A stretch of DNA of 64,000 bases from Chloroflexota bacterium (GTDB lineage Bacteria > Chloroflexota > Limnocylindria > Limnocylindrales > CSP1-4). A program made the translations under genes and the position numbers. Below, one piece after another: positions 2,358-64,000 of the stretch (positions are counted from its first letter, which is position 1; each line of letters begins with the position of its first letter). The stretch covers positions 3,495-67,494 of the forward strand of contig VEOW01000115.1 in NCBI GenBank assembly GCA_012026785.1, read 5' to 3'. Below the pieces are notes generated by a model. The model saw nothing but the letters and a program-made list of their open reading frames with translations. It made no database searches and was not told the origin of the DNA.

Positions 2358-3050
2358 ATGACTCCAGCTCCCCACCTCTCGCTGGCCCCAGACCTCGTCG
2401 AGGCCGAGCCGGTCCCGACCCCCGCCACCGCGCCCACCGGCCGGCGCATCGAGCCCGCGGACTGGCGGCGCTACGAGAGCTACCTCGGCGAGATCCTCGA
2501 GGCCCTTGGCCTTGACCTCTCGAGCGCGGCCACCGTGGCCACGCCGCGCCGGTTCCTGCAGGCCCTGTACGACGCGACCGACGGGTACGACGGCGATCCC
2601 AAGCTCCTGACGGCCTTCCCGACCGAGTGCCACGGCGACGCCAACTGCGAGCTGGCCCAGGTCATCGAGGGTCCCATCCGGTTCCACGCGCTGTGCGAGC
2701 ACCACGCGCTGCCGTTCAGCGGCGAGGCCTACGTCGGCTACGTCGCCCACGAGGGCATCATCGGCATCAGCAAGCTGACCCGCCTCGTCCGGGTCCTTAC
2801 CCGCCGCTTCGGCGTCCAGGAGCGGATGACCCACCAGATCGCCGACGAGCTCGATCGGCTCGTGGCGCCGCACGGGGTCGCGGTCTATCTGGAGGCGCAC
2901 CACCTGTGCACGCAGATGCGCGGCGTGCGTGAGAACGATGCCCTGACACGAACGACGGCCTACCGCGGCGTCTACGCCGAGAACGCCGCCCTTCGACGCG
3001 AGTTCTTCGAAGCCAGCGGCCTCGGGATGGTTCGAGGGGGTCGACGATGA
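2358..3050 (+). CDS. folE: GTP cyclohydrolase I
   Basis: Conserved FolE motifs: TPRRFLQAL, CEHHALPFSGEAYVGY, ISKLTRLVRVLTRRFGVQERMTHQIA. Confidence 0.9.
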   Translation: MTPAPHLSLAPDLVEAEPVPTPATAPTGRRIEPADWRRYESYLGEILEALGLDLSSAATVATPRRFLQALYDATDGYDGDPKLLTAFPTECHGDANCELAQVIEGPIRFHALCEHHALPFSGEAYVGYVAHEGIIGISKLTRLVRVLTRRFGVQERMTHQIADELDRLVAPHGVAVYLEAHHLCTQMRGVRENDALTRTTAYRGVYAENAALRREFFEASGLGMVRGGRR

Positions 3051-3955
3051 CGGTCACGCTCGCGCCCGAGACGCTCCAGCGCCTCGAGCTGCTGTGGGAG
3101 GCGCTCCCGGCCGACCGTGCCGAGATCCGGGGTGGCGGCCTGCCGCCCGAGCTGGCTCGGCGGTACGGCGGCCCGCTCCTCGTCGGCCTGCGCCCGGATC
3201 GTCCGACGGTTATCGCCAACCTCGTGTCGACGATCGACGGCATCGTCGCGCTCGGTCCGGGGGAGCTGAGCGGCGGTCGCGTCGTCAGCGGGTCCCACGA
3301 GCCCGATCGGTTCGTCATGGCCCTGCTCCGGGCGCTTGCTGACGTCGTGCTGGTTGGCGCAGGCACGCTCCGTCAATCGTCCAGCCAGCGCTGGACCGCC
3401 GAGCACCTGCAGCCGAAGCTCGCGCCGGCGTTCGAGGACTGGCGCCGCGCGATGGGGTTGGCGCCCCGACCCATGACCGTGATCGTGACCACCAGCGGGG
3501 ACATCCCGGTCGAGCACCCAGGCTTGACCAGCCCCGACATCCGGGTCGTCGTGGCCACGTCGCTCGATGGCGCGCGGAGGCTCGCCCACCGGGGCCTGAC
3601 GGACAACATCTCGCTCGAGGTCCTCGGAGGCGCAGGCGCCCTCGACGGAGCCAGCTCGCTCGATGCTGCCGCGATCGTCGAACTGGTCGGGCGGCTGGGC
3701 GCGCGGGTCGCCCTGGCCGAGGGTGGGCCGCACGCGCTCGGCGAGCTCGTTGGAGCCGATCTCGTGGACGAGCTGTTCCTGACCGTCTCGCCGCAGCTCG
3801 TCGGCCGAGCCGATCCCGCCCGCCTCGGCCTCGTCGAGGGCGTGGCCGTTCCGCCGGGCTCGCGCTGGCAGGAGCTGGCGAGCGTCCGACGCTCCACCGA
3901 CCACCTGTTCCTGCGATATCGCCGCGCTTCGATTGCGGCAGCCACGGAGGCCTGA
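3047..3955 (+). CDS. RibD C-terminal domain / dihydrofolate-reductase-family pyrimidine reductase
   Basis: Motifs VIANLVSTIDGIVA, LLRALADVVLVGAGTL and DELFLTVSPQLVG are typical of the bacterial deaminase-reductase C-terminal domain. ATGA overlap with folE. Confidence 0.7.
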   Translation: MTVTLAPETLQRLELLWEALPADRAEIRGGGLPPELARRYGGPLLVGLRPDRPTVIANLVSTIDGIVALGPGELSGGRVVSGSHEPDRFVMALLRALADVVLVGAGTLRQSSSQRWTAEHLQPKLAPAFEDWRRAMGLAPRPMTVIVTTSGDIPVEHPGLTSPDIRVVVATSLDGARRLAHRGLTDNISLEVLGGAGALDGASSLDAAAIVELVGRLGARVALAEGGPHALGELVGADLVDELFLTVSPQLVGRADPARLGLVEGVAVPPGSRWQELASVRRSTDHLFLRYRRASIAAATEA

Positions 3956-3956
3956 C

Positions 3957-5177
3957 ATGCCACAGCAGACCCACGTCATCGTCGGCGCCAGCCTCGCCGG
4001 AGCCAGTGCCGCCGCGGCCCTGCGCAAGCGCGGCTTCGACGGCCGGATCGTTCTGATCGGCGATGAGCCCCATCTCCCGTACGAGCGCCCGGAGCTGTCG
4101 AAGAAGTACCTCCGCGGCGAGGTCGAAACCCCGGTCATCGTGCACGACGAGGCGTTCTACGCGGACTCGGCCATCGAGCTCCTGCGGGGCCGCCGGGTCA
4201 CCGGCCTCGATCTCGATGCCCGCCGGGTGATCATCGATGCCGAGACGATCCGGTTCGACCGGCTGCTGGTCGGGACCGGCGCCTCGCCCCGGCCGCTGGG
4301 CGTGCCCGGCGAGGACCTCCCGGGCGTGCACCGGCTGCGGACCCTGGAGGACGCGGATGCGATTCGCGAGGCGGCCGCTCGCGCGAGCGGCGCCGTCGTC
4401 GTCGGTGGCGGCTGGATCGGCTCGGAGGTGGCTGCCTCGCTGCGCCAGCTCGGCCTCGATGTGGCCGTCGTATCGCTCACCCCAACGCCGCTGGAGCACG
4501 TCCTGGGCGCCGAGATCGGCGCGATCTACCGGGAGACGCACGAGGGGCACGGCGTGCGATTCGTCACGGGTTCGCGCGTTCGGAGAATCCTGGGCACGGA
4601 TCGAGCGACCGGGGTCGAGACGGATGACGGCCGGCGAATCGAGGCCGACCTCGTGATCGTCGGTGTGGGCGCGGATCCGCGGACCGACCTGGCCGTCGCT
4701 GCGGGCCTCGAGGTTCGGAACGGCATCGTCGTCGGCGCCAACCTCGAGACAGGCGCTCCCGGCGTGTTCGCGGCCGGTGACGTGGCGAACGCCTGGCACC
4801 CGTTCTACCGGCGCCACCTCCGGGTCGAGCACTGGGACAACGCCAAGCGCCAGGGCCGGGCGGCCGCGGCGAGCATGCTCGGCGAGCCGACGAGCTACGA
4901 TCGGATCCCGTACTTCTACTCCGACCAGTACGAGCTCGGGATGGAGTACACAGGGCACGCCCTCCACTGGGACGAGGTCGTCATCCGGGGCGACCGCGAG
5001 GCGCGCGAGCTCATCGCCTTCTGGCTCTCCGGTGGGCGCGTCGTGGCCGGCATGAACATGAACGTCTGGGACGTCGCGCCGGCGATCGAGCGGCTCGTCC
5101 GGTCTCGGTCGGCCATCGATCGCGACCGCCTGGCCGACCCGGACGCTCCGCTCGAGGCGCTCGCTCCCGCCGCGTGA
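3957..5177 (+). CDS. FAD/NAD(P)-dependent oxidoreductase, ferredoxin-reductase family
   Basis: Dinucleotide-binding VIVGASLAGASAAAALR and a second VVVGGGWIGSEVAASL. Putidaredoxin-reductase-like architecture. The ATG at 3957 is taken rather than the 3933 ORF start because it abuts the upstream stop. Confidence 0.8.
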   Translation: MPQQTHVIVGASLAGASAAAALRKRGFDGRIVLIGDEPHLPYERPELSKKYLRGEVETPVIVHDEAFYADSAIELLRGRRVTGLDLDARRVIIDAETIRFDRLLVGTGASPRPLGVPGEDLPGVHRLRTLEDADAIREAAARASGAVVVGGGWIGSEVAASLRQLGLDVAVVSLTPTPLEHVLGAEIGAIYRETHEGHGVRFVTGSRVRRILGTDRATGVETDDGRRIEADLVIVGVGADPRTDLAVAAGLEVRNGIVVGANLETGAPGVFAAGDVANAWHPFYRRHLRVEHWDNAKRQGRAAAASMLGEPTSYDRIPYFYSDQYELGMEYTGHALHWDEVVIRGDREARELIAFWLSGGRVVAGMNMNVWDVAPAIERLVRSRSAIDRDRLADPDAPLEALAPAA

Positions 5178-24906: not shown

Positions 24907-25638
24907 TCAGGTCTCCTCGTCGACCTCGATGCGATAGCCAACCCCGCGGATCGCGACGATCGCGGGGCCACCCGCGTCGTCGACCTTCCGGCGGAGCCGC
25001 GCGAGGTGCGGCTTCAGCCATAGCGGGTCTGGATCGGCCTCGGCCGGCCAGCCCGCGCGCGCGAGGCGGAGGTGGGGGACGAGGGCGCCGCCGGCGCGGA
25101 CGAGGACCTCCAGGAGGCGATACTCGGTCGGGGTCAGCGACAGCCGCCGGTCCTCGACGCGGGTTTCGTGGCGCCCGGGATCGAGCGCCAGGTTGCCGAT
25201 CTCGAGGAGGTTGCTCGTGGCCGAGGCTGGCGTCGCCGCCAGTCCACCGACGGCCCGCTCGGCCCGGCGCATGACGGCCCCGATTCGGGCCAGCAGCTCG
25301 GCTCGCCCGAACGGCTTGACGAGGTAGTCGTCGGCCCCGATGGCGAAGGCCCGGACCTTGGCCTCCTCGGCGCTCTCGCCGGTCACGACGACGATCGGGG
25401 CCTCGCCCTCGGCCCGGATCTGGCCGGCAACGGTGAAACCGTCGGGGCCGGGCATCGCAAGGTCGAGGAGGACGAGGTCGGGCCGCTCCTCTCGGAACCG
25501 ACGGACGGCCGTCAGGCCGTCGTAGGCGGTGATGACCTGGTGGCCCTCGGTGCCGACGAGGGCGGTGATGGCACCGACCATGGCCGGATCGTCGTCGACG
25601 ACGAGGATCCGCAGCGGGCGTGTGGCGACCACCCTCAC
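24907..25638 (-). CDS. OmpR-family response regulator
   Basis: Receiver domain (LVVDDDP, phospho-acceptor D in LVLLDLAMP) and a C-terminal winged-helix (IAIRGVGYRI). Confidence 0.85.
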   Translation of the reverse strand: MRVVATRPLRILVVDDDPAMVGAITALVGTEGHQVITAYDGLTAVRRFREERPDLVLLDLAMPGPDGFTVAGQIRAEGEAPIVVVTGESAEEAKVRAFAIGADDYLVKPFGRAELLARIGAVMRRAERAVGGLAATPASATSNLLEIGNLALDPGRHETRVEDRRLSLTPTEYRLLEVLVRAGGALVPHLRLARAGWPAEADPDPLWLKPHLARLRRKVDDAGGPAIVAIRGVGYRIEVDEET

Positions 25639-25648
25639 GCTCCCATCC

Positions 25649-26917
25649 TCACATCGCCGCCGCGGCCGGCAGTGACAGCACGAATCGCGCGCCGTGCCCG
25701 TTGGCCGGCTCGCACCACAGCCGCCCTCCGACCGAGTCGGAGAGACGCCGGGCAGCGTACAGCCCGATCCCGGATCCGCGGGCGGTCCGCGTCTCGCGAC
25801 GGGCGTACGGTTCGAAGATCCGTTCCCGCCACTCCTCGGGGATCCCCGGTCCCTCGTCGCTGACCGAGATCCGGATCGAGCCCTCGGCCATCCGCCAGTC
25901 GAGCGTGATCGTCGTCTCGGGCGGGGCGTACTTCACGGCGTTCTCGATGAGGTGCTCGAGGATCTGGCGGAGTCGGGCAGGGTCGGTCAGCGCGAAGTGG
26001 CGAATGCCGCCGCGGATGTCGACGCGATGCCGCGACGTGAGCGGCTCCAGCTCCGCGGCGGTCTCGGCGACGATCGCCCCGACGTCGGGCGGCTCGAGCT
26101 CGGCCGCCTGCTCGGGCGCGACCCGCACCGAGGCGAGAATCGAGTCGACCAGCCGATCCAGCCTCGAGACCTGGTCCATCGCGCCGCGATACCAGGCCGC
26201 TCGCCGCTCTCGGCGGTCCGGATCGCGTGACGAGCGGCCGTCGAGCGGCGGCTCCTCGGCCAGCAGGTCGGCGTAGGCGCGGACGACGGCGAGCGGCGTC
26301 CGCAGCGCGTGGGTCACGAGCGCGATGAGCTCGGCGCGAGCCTCGTCGAGGGCCTTCAGCTCTGCTGCCCGCGCCTCGGCCTCGCGCTGCAGGCGGCCCT
26401 TCTCGACGATCCCCGCGAGCAGGTCGGCGATCGCGCCGAGGTGGACGACGTCCGAATCGCTGAACTCGCGGTGGCGGTCGGTCTGGACGTTGAGCACGCC
26501 GACTGTTCGGTCGTTCCAGATCAGCGGCACCGACAGCATCGAGGCGATGAACCGCTTCTGGTCGATGCCACGGACCCACAGGAAGCGCTTGTCGCTCGGC
26601 ACGTCGTAGATCACGATCGGCTGCTTCGTCGCGGCGACCCGACCCGTCACGCCCTCGCCGAACGGCACCCGCGCGCGACCGATCTGGAAGCGGTCGAGCC
26701 CATTCGTGGCGGCCAGCGTGAGGTTCTTGCCGTCTCGGTCGACGAGGTACAGCGACGAGACGGTTGCCCGGAGCGCATCGCGGGTCTCGTCGACGACCGT
26801 TTCGAGCAGCTCCTCCCACGTCGTCGCGGTTGTCGCGAGGCGGGCGACGCGGTGGAGGAACCGCAGCTGGTCGAGCTGCTCCTCGGCGCGCGTGGGCGGA
26901 TCGAGCTGCTGGGTCAC
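25649..26917 (-). CDS. GAF-domain sensor histidine kinase (start uncertain)
   Basis: GAF region (LYLVDRDGKNLTLAATNG...GVTGRVAATKQPIVIYDV), HisKA H-box THALRTPLA and HATPase N/G boxes (ENAVKYA, DEGPGI, GSGIGL). GTG at 26917 (MTQQLDPP) chosen. The 977-aa track ORF runs antisense through gltB. Confidence 0.7.
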   Translation of the reverse strand: MTQQLDPPTRAEEQLDQLRFLHRVARLATTATTWEELLETVVDETRDALRATVSSLYLVDRDGKNLTLAATNGLDRFQIGRARVPFGEGVTGRVAATKQPIVIYDVPSDKRFLWVRGIDQKRFIASMLSVPLIWNDRTVGVLNVQTDRHREFSDSDVVHLGAIADLLAGIVEKGRLQREAEARAAELKALDEARAELIALVTHALRTPLAVVRAYADLLAEEPPLDGRSSRDPDRRERRAAWYRGAMDQVSRLDRLVDSILASVRVAPEQAAELEPPDVGAIVAETAAELEPLTSRHRVDIRGGIRHFALTDPARLRQILEHLIENAVKYAPPETTITLDWRMAEGSIRISVSDEGPGIPEEWRERIFEPYARRETRTARGSGIGLYAARRLSDSVGGRLWCEPANGHGARFVLSLPAAAAM

Positions 26918-52304: not shown

Positions 52305-52359
52305 TGGCCAGGACGGCGTGACCCTCCGGTCGCGGATCGGCGCCGTGGTCGAGCGCGTC

Positions 52360-53298
52360 ATGCGCTCGTTCCTGCTGACGATCTCGCACTGGCGCTGGCT
52401 CGGCCGACTCGCGGTCCGCTTGCCGTTCACCCGGCCGATGGTGTCGCGGTTCGTCGCCGGCCAGAGCGTGGCCGGGGCGGTCCCGGCCCTCGAGCGCGCC
52501 CGGGATGCCGGCTTTCGGACGACCGTCGACATCCTCGGCGAGTCGGTGACCCATGCCGAGGCCGCCCGTGCTGCCGCGGACGGGTACGTCGCTGCCCTCG
52601 GCACGCTGGCCGAGCACCGCCTCGACATGAACGTCAGCCTCAAGCTGAGCCAGATGGGCCTCGGCCTGGGAACCGCCGTGGCGCGCGAGAACCTGGCCCG
52701 CGTCCTCGTCGCGGCCTCGAGCCACGAGGCGTTCGTCCGGATCGACATGGAGGACCATACGACGACCGATGCGACGCTCGAATTGTGGCGGGGCCTTCGA
52801 CCGGCGATGGCCGGCTCCGGCGACGTCGGGGTCGTCCTCCAGTCGGCGCTGCGGCGGACGGACGCCGACCTCGAGGCGTTGATCGCCGAGGGCGCTCGAA
52901 TCCGGCTCTGCAAGGGCGCCTACAAGGAGCCCGCGACGGTCGCCTACCAGGACAAGGCCGACGTCGACGCGGCCTACGTGCGGCAGATGGAGCGGCTGCT
53001 CCTCGATGCGCCATATCCGGCGATCGCGACCCACGACGACCGGATCATCGACCACGCGATCGCCTTCGCCCGCGAGCACGGCATCGGGCCTGAGCGCTTC
53101 GAGTTCCAGATGCTGTACGGCGTCCGACGCGACCTGCAGGAGCGCCTCCGCCGCGACGGCTGGACGGTCCGGATCTACGTACCGTCAGGCCGTGAGTGGT
53201 ATCCGTACTTCATGCGCCGCCTCGCCGAGCGGCCGGCCAACGTCGTGTTCCTCGTCACCAGCCTGTGGCGCGAGCGCCGCGGCAAGGGCGCCGCGTGA
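52360..53298 (+). CDS. proline dehydrogenase
   Basis: MRSFLLTISHWRWLGRLAV N-terminus and ProDH barrel motifs (RIDMEDH, LYGVRRDLQERL, VRIYVPSG). ATG at 52360, which is the internal M157 of ORF 51892. Confidence 0.85.
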   Translation: MRSFLLTISHWRWLGRLAVRLPFTRPMVSRFVAGQSVAGAVPALERARDAGFRTTVDILGESVTHAEAARAAADGYVAALGTLAEHRLDMNVSLKLSQMGLGLGTAVARENLARVLVAASSHEAFVRIDMEDHTTTDATLELWRGLRPAMAGSGDVGVVLQSALRRTDADLEALIAEGARIRLCKGAYKEPATVAYQDKADVDAAYVRQMERLLLDAPYPAIATHDDRIIDHAIAFAREHGIGPERFEFQMLYGVRRDLQERLRRDGWTVRIYVPSGREWYPYFMRRLAERPANVVFLVTSLWRERRGKGAA

Positions 53299-53305
53299 GG
53301 CTGGC

Positions 53306-53812
53306 TTAGCCGTCGGAGACCGCGAGGGCCTCGCGCAGCTGCGTGACGTGACCCTCCAGGTGGCCGACCTGGAACCGCTCCACGATCTCGGTCACGGCCA
53401 GCGGCCCTCGTGTTGGGTGGAGTCCTTCCCGCTGTCCCTCTGCGGCCGAGAGCTCGCGCAGCCGGCCGGCCACTCGATTCGCATCCGCGGCGATGCGTGA
53501 CAGCAACTCCCGGGCGGGCATCGTCCGGTCGCGGCCGATGATCGCGACGCGGACGGGATCCGCCTCCGTTCGACCGAATGGCACCGGCTCGCCATCGGCG
53601 CCATCGAGGATTCGTTCGATCTCACCCATCCAGTAGGGGAGCATCTCGGCCACGTGGGCGAGGACCTCGCGGGGCCCCCAGGCCGACTCGGGACCGGGCC
53701 CGTAGACGTCGGTCAAGGCCCACGGCGCGCCCGCCTCGATTCGAGTTCGAAGGCCTTCCAGTTCGGCGGCCGCCTGCTCCAGGCGGGCGGCCTGCTGCGT
53801 GAGTGTCGACAT
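53306..53812 (-). CDS. DinB/YfiT-like (mycothiol-maleylpyruvate-isomerase N-terminal-domain family) protein
   Basis: Four-helix-bundle DinB_2-like pattern with conserved His (LAHVAEMLPYW...VGHLEGHVTQL). Start at M53 of the track ORF. Confidence 0.55.
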   Translation of the reverse strand: MSTLTQQAARLEQAAAELEGLRTRIEAGAPWALTDVYGPGPESAWGPREVLAHVAEMLPYWMGEIERILDGADGEPVPFGRTEADPVRVAIIGRDRTMPARELLSRIAADANRVAGRLRELSAAEGQREGLHPTRGPLAVTEIVERFQVGHLEGHVTQLREALAVSDG

Positions 53813-53882
53813 GGCGGCAGTGTCGCATGGCGCCGCCCGCATCGCCCCCCATCCCCCCAAGAATCCTCCCATCGCCCCCTCT

Positions 53883-54045
53883 TTGCGTCCCAGGCAACAA
53901 GCGTCGGTTGGACGGCTGGATTCGGTGCCGCGACGTCCGCCAGCCGTCCAGGCTTGCGCCACGTGCAACGTCTCGCGGTTGGATGAGCTGAATCGCGGTC
54001 GGCCGTCCCGTCAACCGTTCCTTGTTGCGCACCGCGCAAACGGCC
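53883..54045. repeat. repeat element copy A: three CAAC-N8-GTTG palindromes (53895-53910, 53966-53981, 54012-54027) in the hppD leader
   Basis: Read directly. The flanking 28 nt (ttgcgtcccaggcaacaagcgtcggttg) matches the reverse complement of 63258-63292 at 28/29. Confidence 0.6.
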
Positions 54046-58216: not shown

Positions 58217-58609
58217 ATGGCCCGCCGAACGGTCGACGAGCTGCTCGAGGAGGCGCGCTCCGGTCTCCACCGGCTCCAGCCGGCAGCCGCGCTCGCGGCC
58301 ATGGAGGCCGGGGCCCTGCTCGTCGACACGCGCTGCGAGGACCTGCGCGAGGCCGATGGGGTCGTGCCCGGCTCGGTCCACGTGCCGCTGTCGGTCCTCT
58401 ACTGGCGCCTCGATCCGTCGTCCGGCCACGACGATCCGGCGCTGTCCGACCTCGACCGCCAGGTCATCCTGCTGTGCGCCCATGGCTACAGCTCCAGCCT
58501 CGCTGCGGCGACCCTGCGAGCGCTGGGCTTCGAACAGGCCACCGACGTCATCGGGGGGTTCGAGGCGTGGCGAGATGCCAACCTGCCGTTCGACGGGGGT
58601 TCGAGCTAG
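58217..58609 (+). CDS. rhodanese-domain sulfurtransferase
   Basis: Active-site loop LLCAHGYSS with the catalytic Cys. Single rhodanese domain. Confidence 0.8.
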   Translation: MARRTVDELLEEARSGLHRLQPAAALAAMEAGALLVDTRCEDLREADGVVPGSVHVPLSVLYWRLDPSSGHDDPALSDLDRQVILLCAHGYSSSLAAATLRALGFEQATDVIGGFEAWRDANLPFDGGSS

Positions 58610-58662: not shown

Positions 58663-59238
58663 ATGGCGCGCGCGGACCAGCCAAGGCTCGTGATCGGCCT
58701 CGGGGCCGCCGTCGTCGCCATCTCGCTCGCGGCCTGCAACGCCGCAGAACCAACGGAGACCGACATGCGTAGCCCCGAATCGACCGCGGGCGTCCAGTTC
58801 GCCCTGACCAGCCCCGAATTCCCCGAGGGCGGCGCGATCCCGAGCCGCTACACCTGCGATGGCGACGACGTCTCTCCGCCACTCGAGTGGAGCGGCGCCC
58901 CCGAGTCTGCCGCCTCGCTGGCCCTCGTCATCGACGATCCCGACGCCCGCGGCTTCGTCCACTGGGTCGTCTACAACATCGACCCCTCCGCCTCCGGAGG
59001 CCTGCCGGCCGGCTGGTCGGAGGACGCCGAGTTCCAGGGCTCCAACGACTTCGGTCGAATGGGCTACGGCGGGCCCTGTCCGCCATCAGGTGCCCATCGA
59101 TATCGCTTCCGGTTGCTGGCGCTGGACACGATGCTCGACCTGACCGGTGCCCCAACGGCCCAGCGGCTCACGGACGCCGCCGCCGGTCACGTCCTCGCCG
59201 AGGCCCAGCTCAACGCCAGCTACCGGCGCGCGCGGTGA
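58663..59238 (+). CDS. YbhB/YbcL (PEBP/RKIP-family) lipoprotein
   Basis: Lipobox AISLAAC, then PEBP motifs (LALVIDDPDA...GFVHWVVYNI, HRYRFRLLALD). Confidence 0.8.
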   Translation: MARADQPRLVIGLGAAVVAISLAACNAAEPTETDMRSPESTAGVQFALTSPEFPEGGAIPSRYTCDGDDVSPPLEWSGAPESAASLALVIDDPDARGFVHWVVYNIDPSASGGLPAGWSEDAEFQGSNDFGRMGYGGPCPPSGAHRYRFRLLALDTMLDLTGAPTAQRLTDAAAGHVLAEAQLNASYRRAR

Positions 59239-60272
59239 AGGGCGGCCACGTCCGCGAGACGCACGCTCCGGCCGGGGCGCCGTGGCGGCTGGCCGCGGCG
59301 CGACGCTGGGACGCCGGCGAGTGGCTCGACCTGGAGGTCGTGCGGCGCCGGCTCGTGTCCGCCGATCCCCGGCGAGCCCACAACTCGATCCTCTTTCGAC
59401 AGCCGCTGACGACGCTCGACGACCTGCTCGTTCGGGGGCTTCGAATCGAGGTCCTGGCCGAGCTCGTCGAGGGCTTCGAACCCCGCGGGGCGCCCGAGGA
59501 CGATGACGCGGTCCTCGACCCAGCCGACCTCGTCTTCGGCCGGCCGATCCTGCAGCCGCCGGCGTTCCGCGACTTCTATGCGTTCGAACGGCATGTCCGG
59601 ACGATGTGGGAACGCCGCGGCGGCGAGATCCCCGAGGCCTGGTACCGCCTGCCGATCTTCTACATCTCGAACACCTCGGAGCTGCGCGGGCCGGGTGAGC
59701 CGGTCTGGGCGCCGCGTGGCAGCCAGGAGCTGGACTTCGAGCTGGAGGTCGGCGCCATCGTCGACACACCCGCGGTCGACCTGGCCGAGGAGCACGCCGA
59801 GGCCGTCATCGGCGGCTACTTCGTCCTGAACGACTGGTCGGCGCGAGACCTGCAGCGCGACGAGACGACCGTCCGGCTCGGGCCAGCCAAGGGCAAGGAC
59901 TTCGCGGCCTCGATCGGGCCTTGGATCGTGACGCCCGACGAGCTCGCCGATGCCCGGGTGGAGGGCTCAACTGGCCCGGACCTCGCGATGTCCGCGTCCG
60001 TCCAGGACGCGGCCGGCAGCGTGACGGCGATCTCGCGGGGCACGTGGGCGAGCGCCCAGCACTCGTTCGGGGCGATGCTCGCCCGGGCCTCGGCCGACGT
60101 CCACCTTCGGGCCGGCGAGATCGTCGGCAGCGGCACGGTCGGCGGCGGCTGCCTGCTCGAGGTGAAGGACGAGACGCTGGGCCGGTGGCTGGCGCCGGGC
60201 GACGTCGTGCGCCTGTCGATCGAGCGCCTCGGCGTCCTCGAGAGTCCGGTCATCGAGCGCCCCGGACGCTGA
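59235..60272 (+). CDS. fumarylacetoacetate-hydrolase (FAH) family protein
   Basis: GTG overlapping the PEBP stop. FAH-fold motifs (GYFVLNDWSARDLQ, GPAKGKDF, GEIVGSGTVGGG). Confidence 0.75.
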   Translation: MKGGHVRETHAPAGAPWRLAAARRWDAGEWLDLEVVRRRLVSADPRRAHNSILFRQPLTTLDDLLVRGLRIEVLAELVEGFEPRGAPEDDDAVLDPADLVFGRPILQPPAFRDFYAFERHVRTMWERRGGEIPEAWYRLPIFYISNTSELRGPGEPVWAPRGSQELDFELEVGAIVDTPAVDLAEEHAEAVIGGYFVLNDWSARDLQRDETTVRLGPAKGKDFAASIGPWIVTPDELADARVEGSTGPDLAMSASVQDAAGSVTAISRGTWASAQHSFGAMLARASADVHLRAGEIVGSGTVGGGCLLEVKDETLGRWLAPGDVVRLSIERLGVLESPVIERPGR

Positions 60273-60336
60273 GCGGCGGCGCCCGGGCCGTCCGCGGCGC
60301 CGTGGTCCGTCGCCGCGTCCCCTTGCCCCGCCCCAG

Positions 60337-60510
60337 CCGCGTCCCCTGTCAGGTGACGGATTCGATGGGGGTTGGTCACGTTGTCCCCTGGAGGGGGACG
60401 AAACGACGGTTTCGGGCCCTCTGGAGGTCCGCAGGTGGTCGTTGTCTCCCCTCCACAGGTGACAGAGCGTCGGTGCGCCGTCGCCACTGACCCCTCTCAG
60501 GGGACACGCC
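60337..60510. repeat. four degenerate tandem imperfect palindromes (GTCCCCT...AGGGGAC type) in the tauE leader
   Basis: gtcccctgtcaggtgac, gtcccctggagggggac, tctcccctccacaggtgac and gacccctctcaggggac spaced about 42-64 nt. Flanking ggtc(ac)gttgtc(t)cccct is also repeated. Confidence 0.5.
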
Positions 60511-60637
60511 TCGCGATTGACAAGCCGGCACCATTACGCCACTATCCAGACTATTCCCACTGATTCAGTGGAAACACTTGGATAGTCGTGATCCGAGGCT
60601 CGTCCCCGCCCCGACCAAGCGCCTGGAGGATCCGTCC

Positions 60638-61579
60638 ATGCCGATGCTCATCGCGATCGCCTGTGCCGGCTTCGTCGCCCAGCTCGTGGACGGGTCGCTG
60701 GGCATGGGCTACGGCGTCACGTCGACCAGCCTGCTGCTGACGATCGGCCTGACACCGGCCCTGGCATCCGCGTCGGTCCACCTCGCCGAGATCGGGACGT
60801 CGGGCATCTCCGGCTTCTCCCACTGGCGCCTCGGGAACGTCAACGGGCGCGTTCTGCTGCTGATGGGCATCCCGGGTGGGATCGGCGCCTTCCTCGGCGC
60901 CGTGGTGCTCTCGAATCTCACGCTCGACGCGGCGCGGCCCATGGTCTCGCTGGTGCTGCTGGCCCTGGGTGGCGCGATCCTGTTTCGCTTCCTCCACGGC
61001 CGCCGGGTCGCTGCCCAGATCGCGGAGGCGACGGCGCTCGCCGACAGGGGCATCGCGCCTGCCGCCAAGCCCGAGCGACGGGCGCGCAGCTGGATGCTCG
61101 TCCCGCTCGGCCTCGTTGGCGGCTTCATGGACGCCAGCGGCGGCGGTGGCTGGGGCCCGGTTACGACCTCGACGATGCTGGCCGCCAGCCGGATGCGGCC
61201 ACGGACGATCATCGGCACGGTCAGCGGCTCGGAGTTCATCGTCTCGATCGCGGCGTCGACGGGCTTCCTGTTCGCCCTCGGTTCGGCGGGCATCGATCCC
61301 GCGATCGTCGCGATGCTGCTGCTCAGCGGCGCCGTGGCGGCGCCGCTCTCGGCGTTCCTCGTCAGCCGCTTCGACGATCGGTCGCTCGGCACCGCGGTGG
61401 GCGCCCTGATCATCTTCCTGAACGTCGACCGCGTGCTGCCGCTGTTCGGCCTCGATCCGGCGATCGGATTCGCGATCAGGCTGGGCGTCGGCGTGGCGGC
61501 GTTCGTCGTGGTCGGCGGCCTGGTGCTTCGGGCGCGGGCGAGGCGGGCGGCGGCCGGCTCGGCCGCCTCCGCCGCCTGA
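60638..61579 (+). CDS. sulfite-exporter TauE/SafE-family membrane protein
   Basis: Two TauE half-repeats of four TM helices each, with a Gly-rich MDASGGGGWGP loop. Start at MPMLIAIACAGF. Confidence 0.8.
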   Translation: MPMLIAIACAGFVAQLVDGSLGMGYGVTSTSLLLTIGLTPALASASVHLAEIGTSGISGFSHWRLGNVNGRVLLLMGIPGGIGAFLGAVVLSNLTLDAARPMVSLVLLALGGAILFRFLHGRRVAAQIAEATALADRGIAPAAKPERRARSWMLVPLGLVGGFMDASGGGGWGPVTTSTMLAASRMRPRTIIGTVSGSEFIVSIAASTGFLFALGSAGIDPAIVAMLLLSGAVAAPLSAFLVSRFDDRSLGTAVGALIIFLNVDRVLPLFGLDPAIGFAIRLGVGVAAFVVVGGLVLRARARRAAAGSAASAA

Positions 61580-61609
61580 GGCTCGGAGGCCGCCACTACA
61601 CTCGCCGGC

Positions 61610-62068
61610 GTGAGGGTTTCGGCCAGGGCCGACTACGCGATCCGGGCGCTCGTCGAGCTCGCCGCGTCCGCGGGCGAGGCACCCATCCGGGGCGAGGCCC
61701 TCGCGCGCGCCCAGGCCATCCCGGCCAAGTATCTCGAGAACCTGCTGGCGGACCTGCGTCGCGCTCGCCTCGTCGCCAGCCAGCGCGGCAGCGAGGGCGG
61801 CTATCGACTGGCCAGGCCGGCCGGCGATATCAGCCTGGCCGACGTCATCCGGGCCATCGATGGCCCCCTGGCCGGCGTTCGAGGAGAAGCGCCCGAGGAC
61901 GTCGAGTACCCCGGTGCGGCGGCGTCGCTACGGGACGTCTGGATCGCGCTGCGGGCGGGGATGCGGGCCGTGCTCGAGTCGGTCACGGTCGCCGACGTCG
62001 CCGCCGGACGCCTGCCGGCCACGGTGACGAGCCTGCTGTCGGAACCGGGGGCGTGGGCCCGCCGCTGA
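61610..62068 (+). CDS. Rrf2-family transcriptional regulator
   Basis: MRVSARADYAIRALVELA wHTH. It lacks the three-Cys Fe-S ligand set of IscR/NsrR. Confidence 0.8.
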   Translation: MRVSARADYAIRALVELAASAGEAPIRGEALARAQAIPAKYLENLLADLRRARLVASQRGSEGGYRLARPAGDISLADVIRAIDGPLAGVRGEAPEDVEYPGAAASLRDVWIALRAGMRAVLESVTVADVAAGRLPATVTSLLSEPGAWARR

Positions 62069-62093
62069 CGGCGGTCTGCGGGCGGCAGCCCGA

Positions 62094-62642
62094 CTAGTCT
62101 TCCTGCTCCGCCCGGTGCTTCTTCATCGACGCGTACTCGGGTGGGAAGGCGCGCTGGAGCCGGCGCAGCAATCCGTGGAGCTCGTCCTTCTCGTCGTCCG
62201 ACAGGGCCGATGCGATGAGCGCCTCGCGGCGGGCCTGGGCGCCGGTGCAGCGCTCCCAGGCTGCGTGGCCTTCCTCGGTCGGCTCGATCAGCGTCCCGCG
62301 CCGGTCGCTCGGGTCGGGTAGCCGACGGATGAGCCCCGCTTCCTCGAGCCGATCGAGGCGATTGGTCATCGCCCCGCTGGACAGTCGAAGCTCCTCCGCC
62401 AGTTGACCGGGGGTGCTTCGGTAGGGTGGACCCTGGTAGCGCAGGTGTCCGATCAGCCAGTAGGCCCGGCGATCGAGGCCGATCTCCGCGAGCGTCTCGT
62501 CCATCGAGCGGTCGAAGTAGTGCGCGAGGATCTGGATCCGTTCGACGATGCCCTCGGTCGGGACGTCGAGCCCGGGGATCTCGCGCTTCCAGACCTTCAG
62601 CTTCTCGTCGAGGCGATCGAGCTGCTCGACGGATGTTTTCAT
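62094..62642 (-). CDS. MarR-family transcriptional regulator
   Basis: MarR wHTH (LIGHLRYQGPPYRSTPGQLAEELRLSSGAMTNRLDRLEEAGLIRRLPDPSDRRGTLIEPT). ATG at 62642. The 357-aa track ORF is an artefact. Confidence 0.8.
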   Translation of the reverse strand: MKTSVEQLDRLDEKLKVWKREIPGLDVPTEGIVERIQILAHYFDRSMDETLAEIGLDRRAYWLIGHLRYQGPPYRSTPGQLAEELRLSSGAMTNRLDRLEEAGLIRRLPDPSDRRGTLIEPTEEGHAAWERCTGAQARREALIASALSDDEKDELHGLLRRLQRAFPPEYASMKKHRAEQED

Positions 62643-62670
62643 GCCGACATTATTCACCTCGAATATCTTT

Positions 62671-62689
62671 ATGTCAAGCCTCTTGACAT
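62671..62689. promoter_or_regulatory. perfect palindrome ATGTCAAG-cct-CTTGACAT, probable MarR operator overlapping a TTGACA-16-TAGAGT promoter
   Basis: Read directly in the AT-rich MarR-divergent intergenic region. The -35 of the plus-strand promoter is the right half-site. Confidence 0.5.
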
Positions 62690-62782
62690 CGTTCGATTCC
62701 GGTGCTAGAGTTCCCCCAGATAGTTCGAGATCAAGAGTCTTTGACTCGAATATCACAAGTATGAGGGAAAGCGAGGACAGAC

Positions 62783-63003
62783 ATGAACGGAATGGACCTG
62801 ATGCGAGTGCCCGGGCTTGGCCTGGCCGCCGCAACCCCCAACGAGCTGATGACCGAGCCGCGCACCGATCGCCACCTCTCCGACGAGGTGACGCCGAGCC
62901 CGACCTTCCAGCTCCATCGACTGCTCGAGGTGTTCCGACCGACCGCCCGCGAGACCGCCGCGCCCGTCGAGCGCCTGCCTGCCTCTCCTTCCGGCAAGGA
63001 CCT
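62783..63003 (+). CDS. small hypothetical protein (73 aa) divergent from MarR
   Basis: GAGGGAAAGCGAGGA RBS-like sequence upstream and a promoter at 62684-62711. No recognisable domain. Confidence 0.3.
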
Positions 63004-63104
63004 CGCCCGCGCCTGAGCTCTCGCTCGAGGGCCGGACATCCGGCCCGAACCCTCGCTAGCCCACGACTGGCCTCCGCCGACGCGGAGGCCAGTTCGATTC
63101 GCCC

Positions 63105-63292
63105 TCCGCCGCTCGGTTTGCACACGCTGCAACAACCGACGGTTGGACGTCCGACTGCAGGCCCCAAAGGCCTGTCGGGTGCCTCAAACCGTCATCCGTT
63201 GCGCCTGGAGCAACGACATACGGTTGGGCGGCGGTGGAGTGGGGTCGCCCCGGAGCTCAACCGTCGCTTGTTGCCTGGGACGCAAGACAAGG
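63105..63292. repeat. repeat element copy B (inverted relative to copy A): CAAC-N8-GTTG palindromes at 63130-63145, 63211-63226 and 63258-63273
   Basis: Same three-palindrome architecture and spacing (81/47 nt versus 71/46 nt in copy A). The terminal 28-33 nt are about 80-97% identical to the reverse complement of copy A ends. Confidence 0.6.
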
Positions 63293-64000
63293 CGGTGCTC
63301 ATCCCCCGTGTGTACGAGACGGACAACCTCGGACATCGAAGCCATCGCAGCGGCACCGGTCAGCCCGCTCCCTGGCCGGACGTCGCACCGGATCTCATCG
63401 AACCCGAGTTCCCCATAAGCCAGCAGGCGTGCCGCGAGCGCCGCGACCTCGTCGGACCCGACCGGCGCCGTGAACGAGAACAGGTCGACGGATCGCCGGA
63501 GCGTGGCCGGGTCGCGACCGATCTCCTGGCAGGCTGCATCGACCTCACGCGTCAGCGCCTCGAGCCGCTCCCGGCCGCCTTCGGCGTCCGATTCGACCCA
63601 CCAGTTCCATTCGTCGGCGTACCGTGCTGCCAGCCGAATGGCCTTCGGCTTGCCCGCGGCGATGACGATCGGGATACCGGAAGGCCGAGGGCCGCGCAGC
63701 ACGAGCTCCGCGTCGGGCACGCGGTAGTACTCGCCATCCAGGGATGCCCGCCCCTCCCGCAGCAGGCCGTGGATCACGGCGATCGCCTCCGCGAAGCGGG
63801 AATAGCGGTGGTCGGCGTCGATGCCGAACGGGGGATAGTCGTCCGGCGTATTGCCGAGTCCGATGCCGAGGCGGTATCGGCCGCCCGAGATCTCGTCCAG
63901 GGTGACGGCAGAGCGCGCGACGAGGGTCGGATGGCGGTACGGGTTGTTGATCACGGCGTGGCCGATGCCGATCGTCGTTGTCGAGGCGGCGATCGCGGCG
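63184..64000 (-). CDS. luciferase-like (LLM-class, flavin/F420-dependent) oxidoreductase, 5' end beyond window
   Basis: TIM-barrel LLM motifs (GRYRLGIGLG, IPIVIAAGKP). The ORF has no start inside the window. The C-terminal about 35 codons overlap repeat copy B. Confidence 0.65.
   Translation of the reverse strand, partial: AAIAASTTTIGIGHAVINNPYRHPTLVARSAVTLDEISGGRYRLGIGLGNTPDDYPPFGIDADHRYSRFAEAIAVIHGLLREGRASLDGEYYRVPDAELVLRGPRPSGIPIVIAAGKPKAIRLAARYADEWNWWVESDAEGGRERLEALTREVDAACQEIGRDPATLRRSVDLFSFTAPVGSDEVAALAARLLAYGELGFDEIRCDVRPGSGLTGAAAMASMSEVVRLVHTGDEHRLVLRPRQQATVELRGDPTPPPPNRMSLLQAQRMTV

Follow-up and report, generated by a model that had tools for sequence, protein, structure and literature searches.

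A predicted tauE-rrf2 promoter with a candidate Rrf2 operator, probably unrelated to a strain-specific palindrome array upstream, in a Chloroflexota bacterium

The 365-nt intergenic region between a FAH-family gene and tauE (60273-60637) in the 64-kb window, which here means the whole stretch of DNA analysed, is best explained as two unrelated parts, a distal part of 244 nt (60273-60516) and a proximal part of 121 nt (60517-60637). The proximal part would carry a conserved promoter and an Rrf2-type operator, while the GTCCCCT-type palindromes upstream of them would be an unrelated, strain-specific duplicated array. Taken as a whole, this explanation is considered probable, though well short of certain.

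Results

Layout of the intergenic region

The features flanking and dividing the region are as follows.

59235-60272, plus strand: FAH-family (fumarylacetoacetate hydrolase) gene (Pfam PF01557)
60257-60300, plus strand: GC-rich hairpin across the FAH stop codon (inverted repeat I5, arms 60257-68 and 60289-300, 92 % complementary)
60273-60516, unstranded: strain-specific spacer of 244 nt from the FAH stop to the -35 box, holding the palindrome array (defined by comparison with relatives)
60517-60522, plus strand: -35 box TTGACA of the predicted tauE-rrf2 promoter
60540-60545, plus strand: predicted -10 box CACTAT, separated from the -35 box by 17 nt
60541-60587, unstranded: outer arms ACTATCCA and TGGATAGT extending the operator palindrome in this strain and overlapping the -10 box
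60550-60578, unstranded: 14-1-14 palindromic operator, a candidate Rrf2 site, ACTATTCCCACTGA-T-TCAGTGGAAACACT, centre 60564
60625-60630, plus strand: Shine-Dalgarno sequence GGAGGA, 7 nt before the ATG (60638)
60638-61579, plus strand: tauE/safE-family membrane protein gene, 313 aa (Pfam PF01925, E 2.8e-36)
61610-62068, plus strand: rrf2-family regulator gene, 152 aa (Pfam PF02082), 30 nt after tauE

The FAH gene closes a rhodanese-PEBP-FAH cluster and lies upstream of tauE in most relatives; its gene call in Logan contig L081, which is identical, is 345 aa long. The FAH stop codon is also spanned by a small C-run/G-run hairpin in the relatives, and the hairpin at 60257-60300 lacks a T-tract. 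The tauE start codon is common to the homologues, which carry GGAGG-like motifs at the position equivalent to the Shine-Dalgarno sequence, and tauE and rrf2 are presumably co-transcribed. The GC content of the window is 72 %. Since the leader sequence was 100 % identical in the three independent Logan assemblies covering it, it is no assembly artefact. ARAGORN gave no match on 59000-64000. Searched with Rfam at the gathering score, the whole window contained two tRNAs and otherwise noise.

A conserved predicted promoter in the proximal part

The upstream DNA was compared among 19 Chloroflexota relatives (Limnocylindria-like) in which it was readable, and 15 loci with 65-87 % TauE identity were aligned (alignment A3). 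TTGAC of the -35 box was invariant in all 15 and also present in L165, L166, L211 and L212, while A2 and T6 of the -10 box were invariant in the alignment. The distance between the two boxes was 17-18 nt across all relatives. This conservation points to TTGACA-17 nt-CACTAT as a sigma-70-like promoter, with a predicted tauE transcription start at about 60552. A stricter consensus promoter scan did not report it, because CACTAT fits TATAAT at just three of six positions. From the predicted start the leader would be about 86 nt long, and the segment 60552-60655 folded like its shuffles (z -0.38).

A candidate 29-bp operator over the predicted start

The nested palindrome that the original prediction had placed just before the ribosome binding site is present at 60541-60587 and its inner part is conserved in relatives. 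That inner part, the 29-bp operator, is symmetric at 11 of 14 positions (inner arms 60554-63 and 60565-74) and was kept in all 19 relatives. It begins 4 nt after the -10 box and so would cover the predicted start; the distance is constant in 14 of the 15 aligned loci, the site of L003 lying about 9-10 nt further downstream. The core C-AC...GT-G was invariant in alignment A3 with variable flanks, positions +/-5 and +/-7 were invariant among 16 aligned sites, and the consensus was ACTATTCCCACTAAATTAGTGGGAATAGT. A model built on the operator found a single site in the 64-kb window (42 bits) and one site per Limnocylindria-like relative locus, and where measured among relatives the operator centre lay 32-75 nt upstream of the tauE start. 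The outer arms were not conserved as such.

In this strain the segment 60538-60592 folds stably (dG -18.9, z -4.3). The operator was read as a DNA site and not as an RNA hairpin, because its mismatches (19 G.T against 20 A.C) carry no RNA-strand bias and the bases themselves are conserved, beyond pairing.

Probable link between the operator and Rrf2

Among 164 fetched loci, rrf2 adjoined tauE in 27, spanning Chloroflexota and Actinobacteria, and the operator occurred together with an adjacent rrf2 in 12; in some others the contig ended first. The operator travels with the tauE-rrf2 pair, and in one sub-clade (L006, L007, L088 and L090) it is present where an adjacent rrf2 is absent. In Brachybacterium (L011) the palindrome TCCGACC-N5-GGTCGGA lies between rrf2 and tauE and has the same 7-5-7 core geometry. 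Adjacency and site architecture suggest that 60550-60578 is probably the Rrf2 binding site.

The Rrf2 protein belongs to the Rrf2 superfamily by NCBIfam, where the best subfamily model was CymR at 90.7 bits, below the cut-off of 195. It contains no cysteine, as do 11 of 12 Limnocylindria-like and actinobacterial orthologues, and the read-through Rrf2 of L004 has one cysteine beyond the conserved domain. Sensing by an Fe-S cluster or a thiol switch is thus impossible for this protein.

The original prediction had offered, as one of two readings, an operator array for a local regulator. This idea probably holds, for one site only, the nested palindrome at 60550-60578, on account of its conservation, size, symmetry and promoter position. 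It fails for the GTCCCCT palindromes as a multi-site Rrf2 array, since all four scored below 12 bits on the operator model, against 42 for the 60550-60578 site, and were absent in relatives.

The GTCCCCT palindromes of the distal part

As had been predicted, the segment 60341-60505 contains four imperfect palindromes with GTCCCCT/AGGGGAC-type arms in a 7-N3/4-7 arrangement, here named P1 to P4. The elements of the array are given below with their RNA folding values.

60317-60323, plus strand: lone GTCCCCT half-motif inside a 12-nt direct repeat GCCGCGTCCCCT (60312 and 60336)
60341-60357, unstranded: P1, GTCCCCT-gtc-AGGTGAC, one arm mismatch (dG -7.3, z -0.46)
60378-60467, unstranded: long imperfect hairpin in which the P2 side pairs with the P3 side (inverted repeat I6)
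60383-60399, unstranded: P2, the best of the four, GTCCCCT-gga-GGGGGAC (dG -13.7, z -3.13)
60399-60414, unstranded: small palindrome CGAAAC-gacg-GTTTCG (dG -4.9, z -0.27)
60446-60463, unstranded: P3, CTCCCCT-ccac-AGGTGAC, two mismatches (z -0.68)
60489-60505, unstranded: P4, GACCCCT-ctc-AGGGGAC, one mismatch (z -1.17), ending 12 nt before the -35 box

The remaining details of the original prediction were largely found as described. The perfect palindrome it reported at about 60382 corresponds to P2 at 60383, which also reads GTCCCC-tggag-GGGGAC, with a loop of 5 nt and not 4. The duplicated GGTC(AC)GTTGTC(T)CCCCT, given as about 63 nt apart, occurs at 60374 and 60436 with a separation of 62 nt, and CGAAAC-gacg-GTTTCG is in place. 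A CRISPR array, which the original prediction had already dismissed on the irregular spacing, was rejected: in place of direct repeats 24-48 nt long that alternate evenly with spacers of comparable length, the units are 17-18-nt palindromes at irregular spacings of about 42, 63 and 43 nt, and Tandem Repeats Finder detected no array in the region.

GTCCCCT/AGGGGAC occurs seven times in the 64 kb, four of them inside 183 nt, and was the sole rare 7-mer clustered so tightly in the window; among 150 windows simulated with an order-3 Markov model, 4 (about 3 %) contained any such 7-mer cluster. Other candidate clusters from this test, at 25276-25443 and 26196-26291, fall in minus-strand coding sequence. 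Blastn-short of the leader against the window found no second copy of any part, and no further cluster of rare-motif palindromes was found there. Palindromes of the same design with up to two arm mismatches occurred seven times elsewhere in 1.2 Mb of DNA, all of them scattered and with two mismatches, and none of the GTCCCCT type was found in the relatives. A scan of viral contigs for GTCCCCTNNNAGGGGAC gave 44 single, scattered and uninformative matches.

In single-palindrome folds P2 alone was more stable than shuffles, P1, P3 and P4 reaching z -0.5 to -1.2. The 90-nt hairpin joining P2 and P3 gave dG -48.1 and z -2.4 (fold of 60374-60470). Taken whole, the 365-nt region folded more stably than its shuffles whichever strand was used (z -3.3 and -3.8), and by generic hairpin density it was no outlier in the 72 % GC window.

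The distal spacer in relatives and the origin of the array

The spacer from the FAH stop to the -35 box measured 7-49 nt in 12 of 15 relatives. In L085 (83-87 %) the FAH stop codon is followed by 10 nt and then TTGACA, the spacer of L165 (88 %) is 14 nt, and that of L211, read separately, is about 36 nt. A 98 %-identical relative (P0001), with the same tauE start codon, has an intergenic region of 148 nt by its gene coordinates, 217 nt shorter than the 365 nt here. Long spacers exist in L009 and L166: the distal segment has no similarity to the first (score 22; shuffles 24.5 +/- 6.5), and the second, as seen by reading without alignment, holds no GTCCCCT palindromes. The array was missing from every relative, including those at 83-88 %, which is the outcome that the original prediction had itself named as counting against a functional leader. 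The GTCCCCT array is thus, from these comparisons, most likely a strain-specific expansion of a short FAH-stop/-35 spacer. The compared loci also show that the stretch separating the FAH terminator from the tauE promoter is a hot spot that gathers unrelated GC-rich inserts across lineages.

Relatives have a single C-run/G-run hairpin ending in GGGG beside TTGACA. The array most likely arose by local duplication of such a small, terminator-like hairpin at the FAH end, with one older event that doubled about 106 nt ([P1 P2][P3 P4]) and shorter ones besides. This proposal has modest support: the alignment of the two halves, 60330-60435 and 60436-60516, outscored 494 of the 500 shuffles made (p about 0.01). 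Direct repeats of 12 nt and 10-11 nt are also present in the distal segment. Pairwise repeat scores within the segment fell in the shuffle range; the operator palindrome, outside it, was the one exception in this test. At most the array would serve the upstream rhodanese-PEBP-FAH transcript through its many hairpins, as a terminator, a 3'-end protector or an insulator; equally it may be neutral.

Discussion

Proposed regulation of tauE-rrf2

We propose that a dimer of the cysteine-less Rrf2 binds the operator downstream of the -10 box and would thereby block RNA polymerase at the start site, giving autoregulation of the tauE-rrf2 operon, and that a signal, presumably sulfur-related, would release it. 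The pair amounts to a regulatory prediction for an uncultured lineage, with the promoter and the 29-bp operator conserved across soil Chloroflexota. A full-text literature search combining Rrf2 and TauE turned up no publication that treats the two as a pair, so the pair could help to reveal the substrate of this large TauE subfamily and the signal of a cluster-less, thiol-less Rrf2. The palindrome array, inserted or duplicated at strain level ahead of the promoter, is of little importance by itself and shows no sign of selection.

Other explanations of the array

A different origin would be the insertion of a small mobile or dispersed palindromic element, such as a REP/BIME-like cluster or a decayed MITE, which would make up a segment of 217-244 nt in the hot spot that follows the FAH terminator hairpin and precedes the tauE promoter. 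Imperfect palindromes sharing one motif do cluster just 3' of a stop codon, the segment would be present in one and absent in the other of two near-identical strains (365 against 148 nt), and L009 and L166 have long inserts of unrelated sequence at this same position. The outermost motifs, CGCGTCCCCT (60314-23) and AGGGGACACG (60499-508), could form a 10-nt terminal inverted repeat (I12), which is the GTCCCCT motif itself. An inserted element is nonetheless unlikely, given that neither the 64-kb window, which is the part of this genome covered, nor 1.2 Mb of DNA including relatives holds a second copy and that the window has no further cluster of this kind. No target-site duplication was definable, the 7-nt arms are short and three of the four palindromes are not stable hairpins.

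It is also unlikely that selection in this strain has favoured the array as a working factor-independent terminator, as a 3'-end stabiliser or as an insulator of the rhodanese-PEBP-FAH transcript. It does lie directly 3' of the FAH stop, where the relatives have a smaller hairpin, stable hairpins form at P2 (dG -13.7) and over 90 nt (dG -48), and the region overall reaches z -3.3. No T/U tract follows any of the hairpins, however, and a terminator scan of 60100-60800 returned 0 sites. In addition, 7-49 nt suffices in the relatives, and the array is dispensable since the 98 %-identical relative, by its gene coordinates, does without it.

Two broader possibilities would give the array a role of its own, and together they are considered improbable. 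It could be a recently acquired, helically phased platform of four sites for a regulator that reads G-tracts, or the first sighting of a family of small palindromic mobile elements in Limnocylindria-like Chloroflexota. The platform would add a second input to tauE, and the element family would target the gaps between terminators and promoters. From one palindrome centre to the next the distances are 42, 63.5 and 42.5 bp, or 4, 6 and 4 helical turns as noticed post hoc, a spacing that would suit proteins on one DNA face.

A specific form of the platform, in which P1-P4 are phased binding sites for a regulator encoded elsewhere, for example a persulfide or metal sensor of the CsoR/CstR family, and form a recently acquired second control of tauE, is highly improbable. 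CstR controls the S. aureus cst locus, which contains tauE, and the C4-N5-G4 pseudopalindromes resemble the type-2 CsoR consensus and the S. mitis cst operator; the spacing in whole helical turns and the end of P4 just short of the -35 box would also fit. But the required TAC/GTA dyad is replaced by GTC/GAC, spanning 11 nt, and the centre is longer by 2 bp. The promoter is near-consensus and needs no activator, three of the four sites are some 100-200 bp upstream of it, and the phasing was spotted only post hoc. The sites are absent in all relatives and hence give no regulon signal. The window yielded no DUF156-like ORF: three family members used as tblastn queries gave a best E of 0.16, and none of the small ORFs with coding-like composition had a DUF156 signature.

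The second reading of the original prediction, that the whole 365 nt forms a structured, possibly ligand-sensing tauE 5' UTR (riboswitch), is close to refuted. In its favour are the overall fold (z -3.3 and -3.8) and the fact that no riboswitch is known for sulfite or sulfoacetate. Against it, the conserved promoter 121 nt before the ATG lies downstream of the palindromes and, because the array is upstream of the -35 box, the array is outside the tauE 5' UTR and the mRNA from the predicted promoter. Relatives lack the distal 244 nt or have unrelated sequence there, the Rfam scan proposed as a check (run at E up to 10) found no match (best E = 0.18 for the region and 3.6 for the palindrome segment), the leader past the predicted start has no unusual structure, the only element both conserved and able to form a hairpin has the properties of a DNA dyad, and the distance from its centre to the start codon varies among relatives.

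Comparison with known systems

The explanation by a conserved promoter and an Rrf2-type operator can be set against described Rrf2 systems. In the literature, Rrf2 homodimers bind operators that are dyads of 23-29 bp, and the HypR site is a 12-3-12 dyad overlapping the -10 box (PMC9338935; PMC6067689). Compared with those of HypR of S. aureus (autoregulated hypR-merA operon), IscR (29-bp site) and NsrR (23-bp site), the predicted operator is likewise a dyad, of 29 bp (14-1-14), positioned over the core promoter and predicted start of an operon that contains rrf2, and conserved across orthologous promoters. Its sequence (the consensus above) is unrelated to the HypR site, and the regulated gene here encodes a TauE/SafE-family membrane protein. 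A further difference is that the regulator is cysteine-free, and its binding to the operator is predicted.

In Bacillus and Staphylococcus, cysteine and sulfur metabolism is controlled by the Rrf2 protein CymR. CymR is described as having no iron-sulfur cluster, and it senses via a surface cysteine in S. aureus and via a partner enzyme in B. subtilis (PMC9338935). The Rrf2 protein here is likewise cluster-less and presumably tied to sulfur metabolism, with CymR as its best NCBIfam subfamily model, but with a score far under the cut-off (90.7 against 195 bits) it is not an equivalog, and it lacks cysteine. Whereas CymR governs a global regulon, tauE-rrf2 would be a local autoregulated pair, as judged from one window.

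For the array, the nearest operators are those of the CsoR/CstR family. The type-2 CsoR consensus is ATATACCCCTNAGGGGTATAT, with a 5'-TAC-X9-GTA-3' dyad needed for binding (PMC3902906), and the S. mitis cst operator is ATATACCCTTATGGGGTATAT (PMC8643695). P1-P4 are similar to them in being C4/G4-tract pseudopalindromes (CCCCT-N3-AGGGG) of similar length, and differ in the missing TAC/GTA flanks and the spacer longer by 2 bp. They also differ in being four sites, mostly far upstream of the promoter, unconserved, and without a cognate gene in the window.

REP/BIME sequences of enterobacteria and MITEs are clustered imperfect palindromes with irregular spacing that are present or absent between strains. 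By this general description the array resembles both classes, also in occupying a co-directional intergenic region just past a stop codon, and it departs from them in its 7-nt arms and in having no other copy in the 64 kb. It further differs in that neither terminal repeats nor a target duplication could be defined, and there is instead evidence of internal tandem duplication.

Gene order of the tauE locus

The tauE gene lies downstream of a FAH-family hydrolase gene in a window of about 72% GC. Genes were assigned by Pfam, with the boundaries of the plus-strand genes taken from the Logan contig L081, which is identical to the window.

Genes and elements of the tauE locus (window coordinates)
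58217-58609, +, rhodanese gene
58663-59238, +, PEBP gene
59235-60272, +, FAH-family hydrolase gene
365 nt, FAH-tauE gap
60341-60357, palindrome P1
60383-60399, palindrome P2, GTCCCC-tggag-GGGGAC (loop of 5 nt)
60399-60414, CGAAAC-gacg-GTTTCG
60446-60463, palindrome P3
60489-60505, palindrome P4
60517-60522, -35 box
60540-60545, -10 hexamer
60541-60587, nested palindrome
60550-60578, candidate operator palindrome
60638-61579, +, TauE/SafE gene
61610-62068, +, Rrf2 gene, 30 nt after tauE
62094-62642, -, MarR gene, after the Rrf2 gene

Orthologous loci (L numbers) were drawn from genome contigs, metagenome contigs and exact-protein look-ups. The nearest public TauE relatives are MAGs of Chloroflexota or Candidatus Limnocylindrales, and FAH stands immediately 5' of tauE in most Limnocylindria-like relatives.

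Upstream of the MarR gene, positions 62600-62800 form an AT-rich island (GC 0.44-0.48 against 72% for the window) with two copies of CTCGAATAT (62659 and 62746) and TTGACA-like boxes; this is probably the MarR promoter/operator region. A tRNA was located at 1080-1151. The rare 7-mers ATTCGGG (262, 505, 1072; within 1-1528) and TCACGCA (53340, 53494, 53796; within 52305-53986) each occur three times in stretches outside the coverage of a crude GC3 filter.

A conserved predicted promoter and candidate operator precede tauE

Relatives share a single intergenic block, consisting of TTGAC(A/G), 17-18 variable nt, the -10 hexamer CAyyaT with invariant A2 and T6, 4 nt and a palindrome of about 29 bp. 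The positions of this block in the window place the predicted transcription start at about 60552, with a leader of about 86 nt. A position-weight operator model built from 16 sites (consensus ACTATTCCCACTAAATTAGTGGGAATAGT) gave a single site for the whole 64 kb, at 42 bits, and one per Limnocylindria-like relative locus; the centres that were measured lie 32-75 nt before the tauE start. We regard the region as a promoter-operator module of an ordinary kind. Since G.T and A.C half-site mismatches were balanced over the 16 sites (19 versus 20) and particular bases were invariant beyond mere pairing, the pattern is what a DNA dyad bound by a protein should show; an RNA hairpin under selection on a single strand would not be expected to show it.

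Two further features were observed around the module. An inverted repeat of 14 nt (60500-60513 and 60594-60607, 86% complementary) flanks promoter and operator on both sides; taken alone it is inside the chance range, and the two equivalent places of the relative locus L009 read CACGGGCCC and GGGCCCGTG. Between operator and Shine-Dalgarno, the window (60595-60616) and its closest relatives share C-rich sequence matching GGCyCGTCCCsGCCCG, seen in the 5' leaders of L009, L085, L165 and L212.

A strain-specific spacer lies in front of the module

The elements described by the original prediction were all found in the sequence with minor corrections, the copies of the flanking duplication being 62 nt apart. 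The leader is identical in the three independent Logan assemblies covering it, so the palindromes are not an assembly artefact. Of the 7 copies of GTCCCCT/AGGGGAC in the 64 kb, 4 fall inside 183 nt; no other rare 7-mer of the window clusters so, a comparable cluster arose in 4 of 150 Markov simulations, and the clustering is unlikely to be chance. The other fetched DNA, 1.2 Mb in all, has essentially no palindromes of the P1-P4 design. The repeat signal of the array is modest: its pairwise repeats fall inside the shuffle range, no tandem array was found in the P1-P4 region, and P2 is the only one of the four that forms a stable hairpin by itself.

The array had been placed within the tauE leader and read, together with the nested palindrome, as a multi-site operator or a structured, possibly ligand-sensing 5' UTR. 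This interpretation was partly supported: for the nested palindrome alone the operator reading found support, and for the GTCCCCT array neither did, as it precedes the conserved -35 box (and is therefore not in the tauE mRNA from this promoter), is absent in all relatives examined and scores below 12 bits on the operator model. The suggested Rfam scan gave no match to the array, the leader that follows the predicted start is no more stable than shuffles (z -0.38), and the riboswitch reading is nearly refuted.

What lies in front of the module is a strain-specific, palindrome-rich spacer. In 12 of the 15 loci measured, 7-49 nt separate the FAH stop from the -35 box; the distance is 10 nt in L085 (83-87% identity), 14 nt in L165 (88%) and about 36 nt in L211 (85%). 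The most telling case is a relative whose TauE is 98% identical and shares the start codon. Its contig has the FAH end at 212 and the tauE start at 361; by these coordinates its intergenic region of 148 nt is 217 nt shorter than the 365 nt of the window, which would leave about 27 nt from stop codon to -35 box. GC-rich inserts unrelated to one another occur in this gap, which seems to be a hot spot for them. Between FAH stop and -35 box, L009 carries 159 GC-rich nt (about 3713-3871) and L166 about 260 (about 397-655), each with its own short repeats; the former has no significant similarity to the window's spacer, and the latter differs by reading and is without the palindromes.

Origin of the palindrome array

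In relatives there is usually a single small C-run/G-run hairpin across the FAH stop with its GGGG end next to TTGACA, as in L085 (GCCCCGGGGC) and similarly in L087, L002, L004 and L001. Because of this single hairpin, because the halves [P1 P2] and [P3 P4] align better than 494 of 500 shuffles, and because shorter direct repeats also occur in the array, we read it as most likely a recent local amplification of a terminator-like hairpin in the hot-spot gap. If the array has a function, it would be at the 3' end of the FAH transcript, but none of the hairpins has a T tract after it.

The position of the array and its presence/absence polymorphism would also suit a REP/BIME- or MITE-like insertion, but the 64 kb contain no second copy. 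Another reading, a phased binding array, draws on the spacing of the palindromes: their centres (60349, 60391, 60454.5 and 60497) are 42, 63.5 and 42.5 bp apart, that is 4, 6 and 4 B-DNA turns, which would put all four on one helix side, a post hoc observation. P1-P4 also resemble the G-tract operators of CsoR/CstR; however, the TAC/GTA dyad required there is missing, the window has no DUF156-like gene, and the sites are not conserved.

Rrf2 as candidate regulator

The rrf2 gene adjoins tauE in 27 of 164 fetched loci, including actinobacteria, where the order is rrf2-tauE or divergent. The rrf2-tauE gap of Brachybacterium (L011) contains TCCGACC-N5-GGTCGGA, and the window TCCCACT-N5-AGTGGGA, both with a 7-5-7 core. 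One sub-clade (L006, L007, L088, L090) keeps the operator with no rrf2 next to it; in the L088 stretch 2900-4146, tauE is followed by a long ORF whose sequence, by eye only, looks like a homogentisate dioxygenase type.

NCBIfam assigned the window Rrf2 to the superfamily only, the best subfamily, CymR, being below cut-off. The TauE-linked Rrf2 proteins (window, L001-L005, L010, L085, L087, L166, L011, L014, L017) have a C-terminal D/EPxAW motif in common. Cysteine is lacking in the window Rrf2 and in 11 of 12 Limnocylindria-like and actinobacterial orthologues, so these proteins are neither Fe-S nor thiol-switch sensors; in L004, where the translation reads through to 200 aa, a single cysteine follows the conserved domain.

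Two further loci were noted. L023, an Anaerolineales MAG, has the same operator-like palindrome, GTAAATTCTACTAAATCAGTAGATTTTAT, between rrf2 and tauE (3913-3941), and its Rrf2, only 39% identical, has 4 cysteines, unlike the cysteine-free protein of the window. In L008 (TauE 70% identity) neither FAH nor Rrf2 is a neighbour, and a different palindrome, ATGTCCA-N10-TGGACAT, comes after a TTGACA-17-GATTAT promoter (3950-3990), which suggests a regulator swap.

A full-text literature search found no paper on the Rrf2 and TauE pair, which is apparently undescribed and modestly interesting. That Rrf2 binds the operator is inferred, as are the transcription start and the inducing signal. Published Rrf2 regulators act as homodimers on dyads of 23-29 bp, and HypR binds a 12-3-12 repeat that overlaps the -10 box of the operon encoding HypR itself (PMC9338935, PMC6067689). 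The window operator is likewise a dyad, arranged as 14-1-14 instead of the 12-3-12 of HypR.
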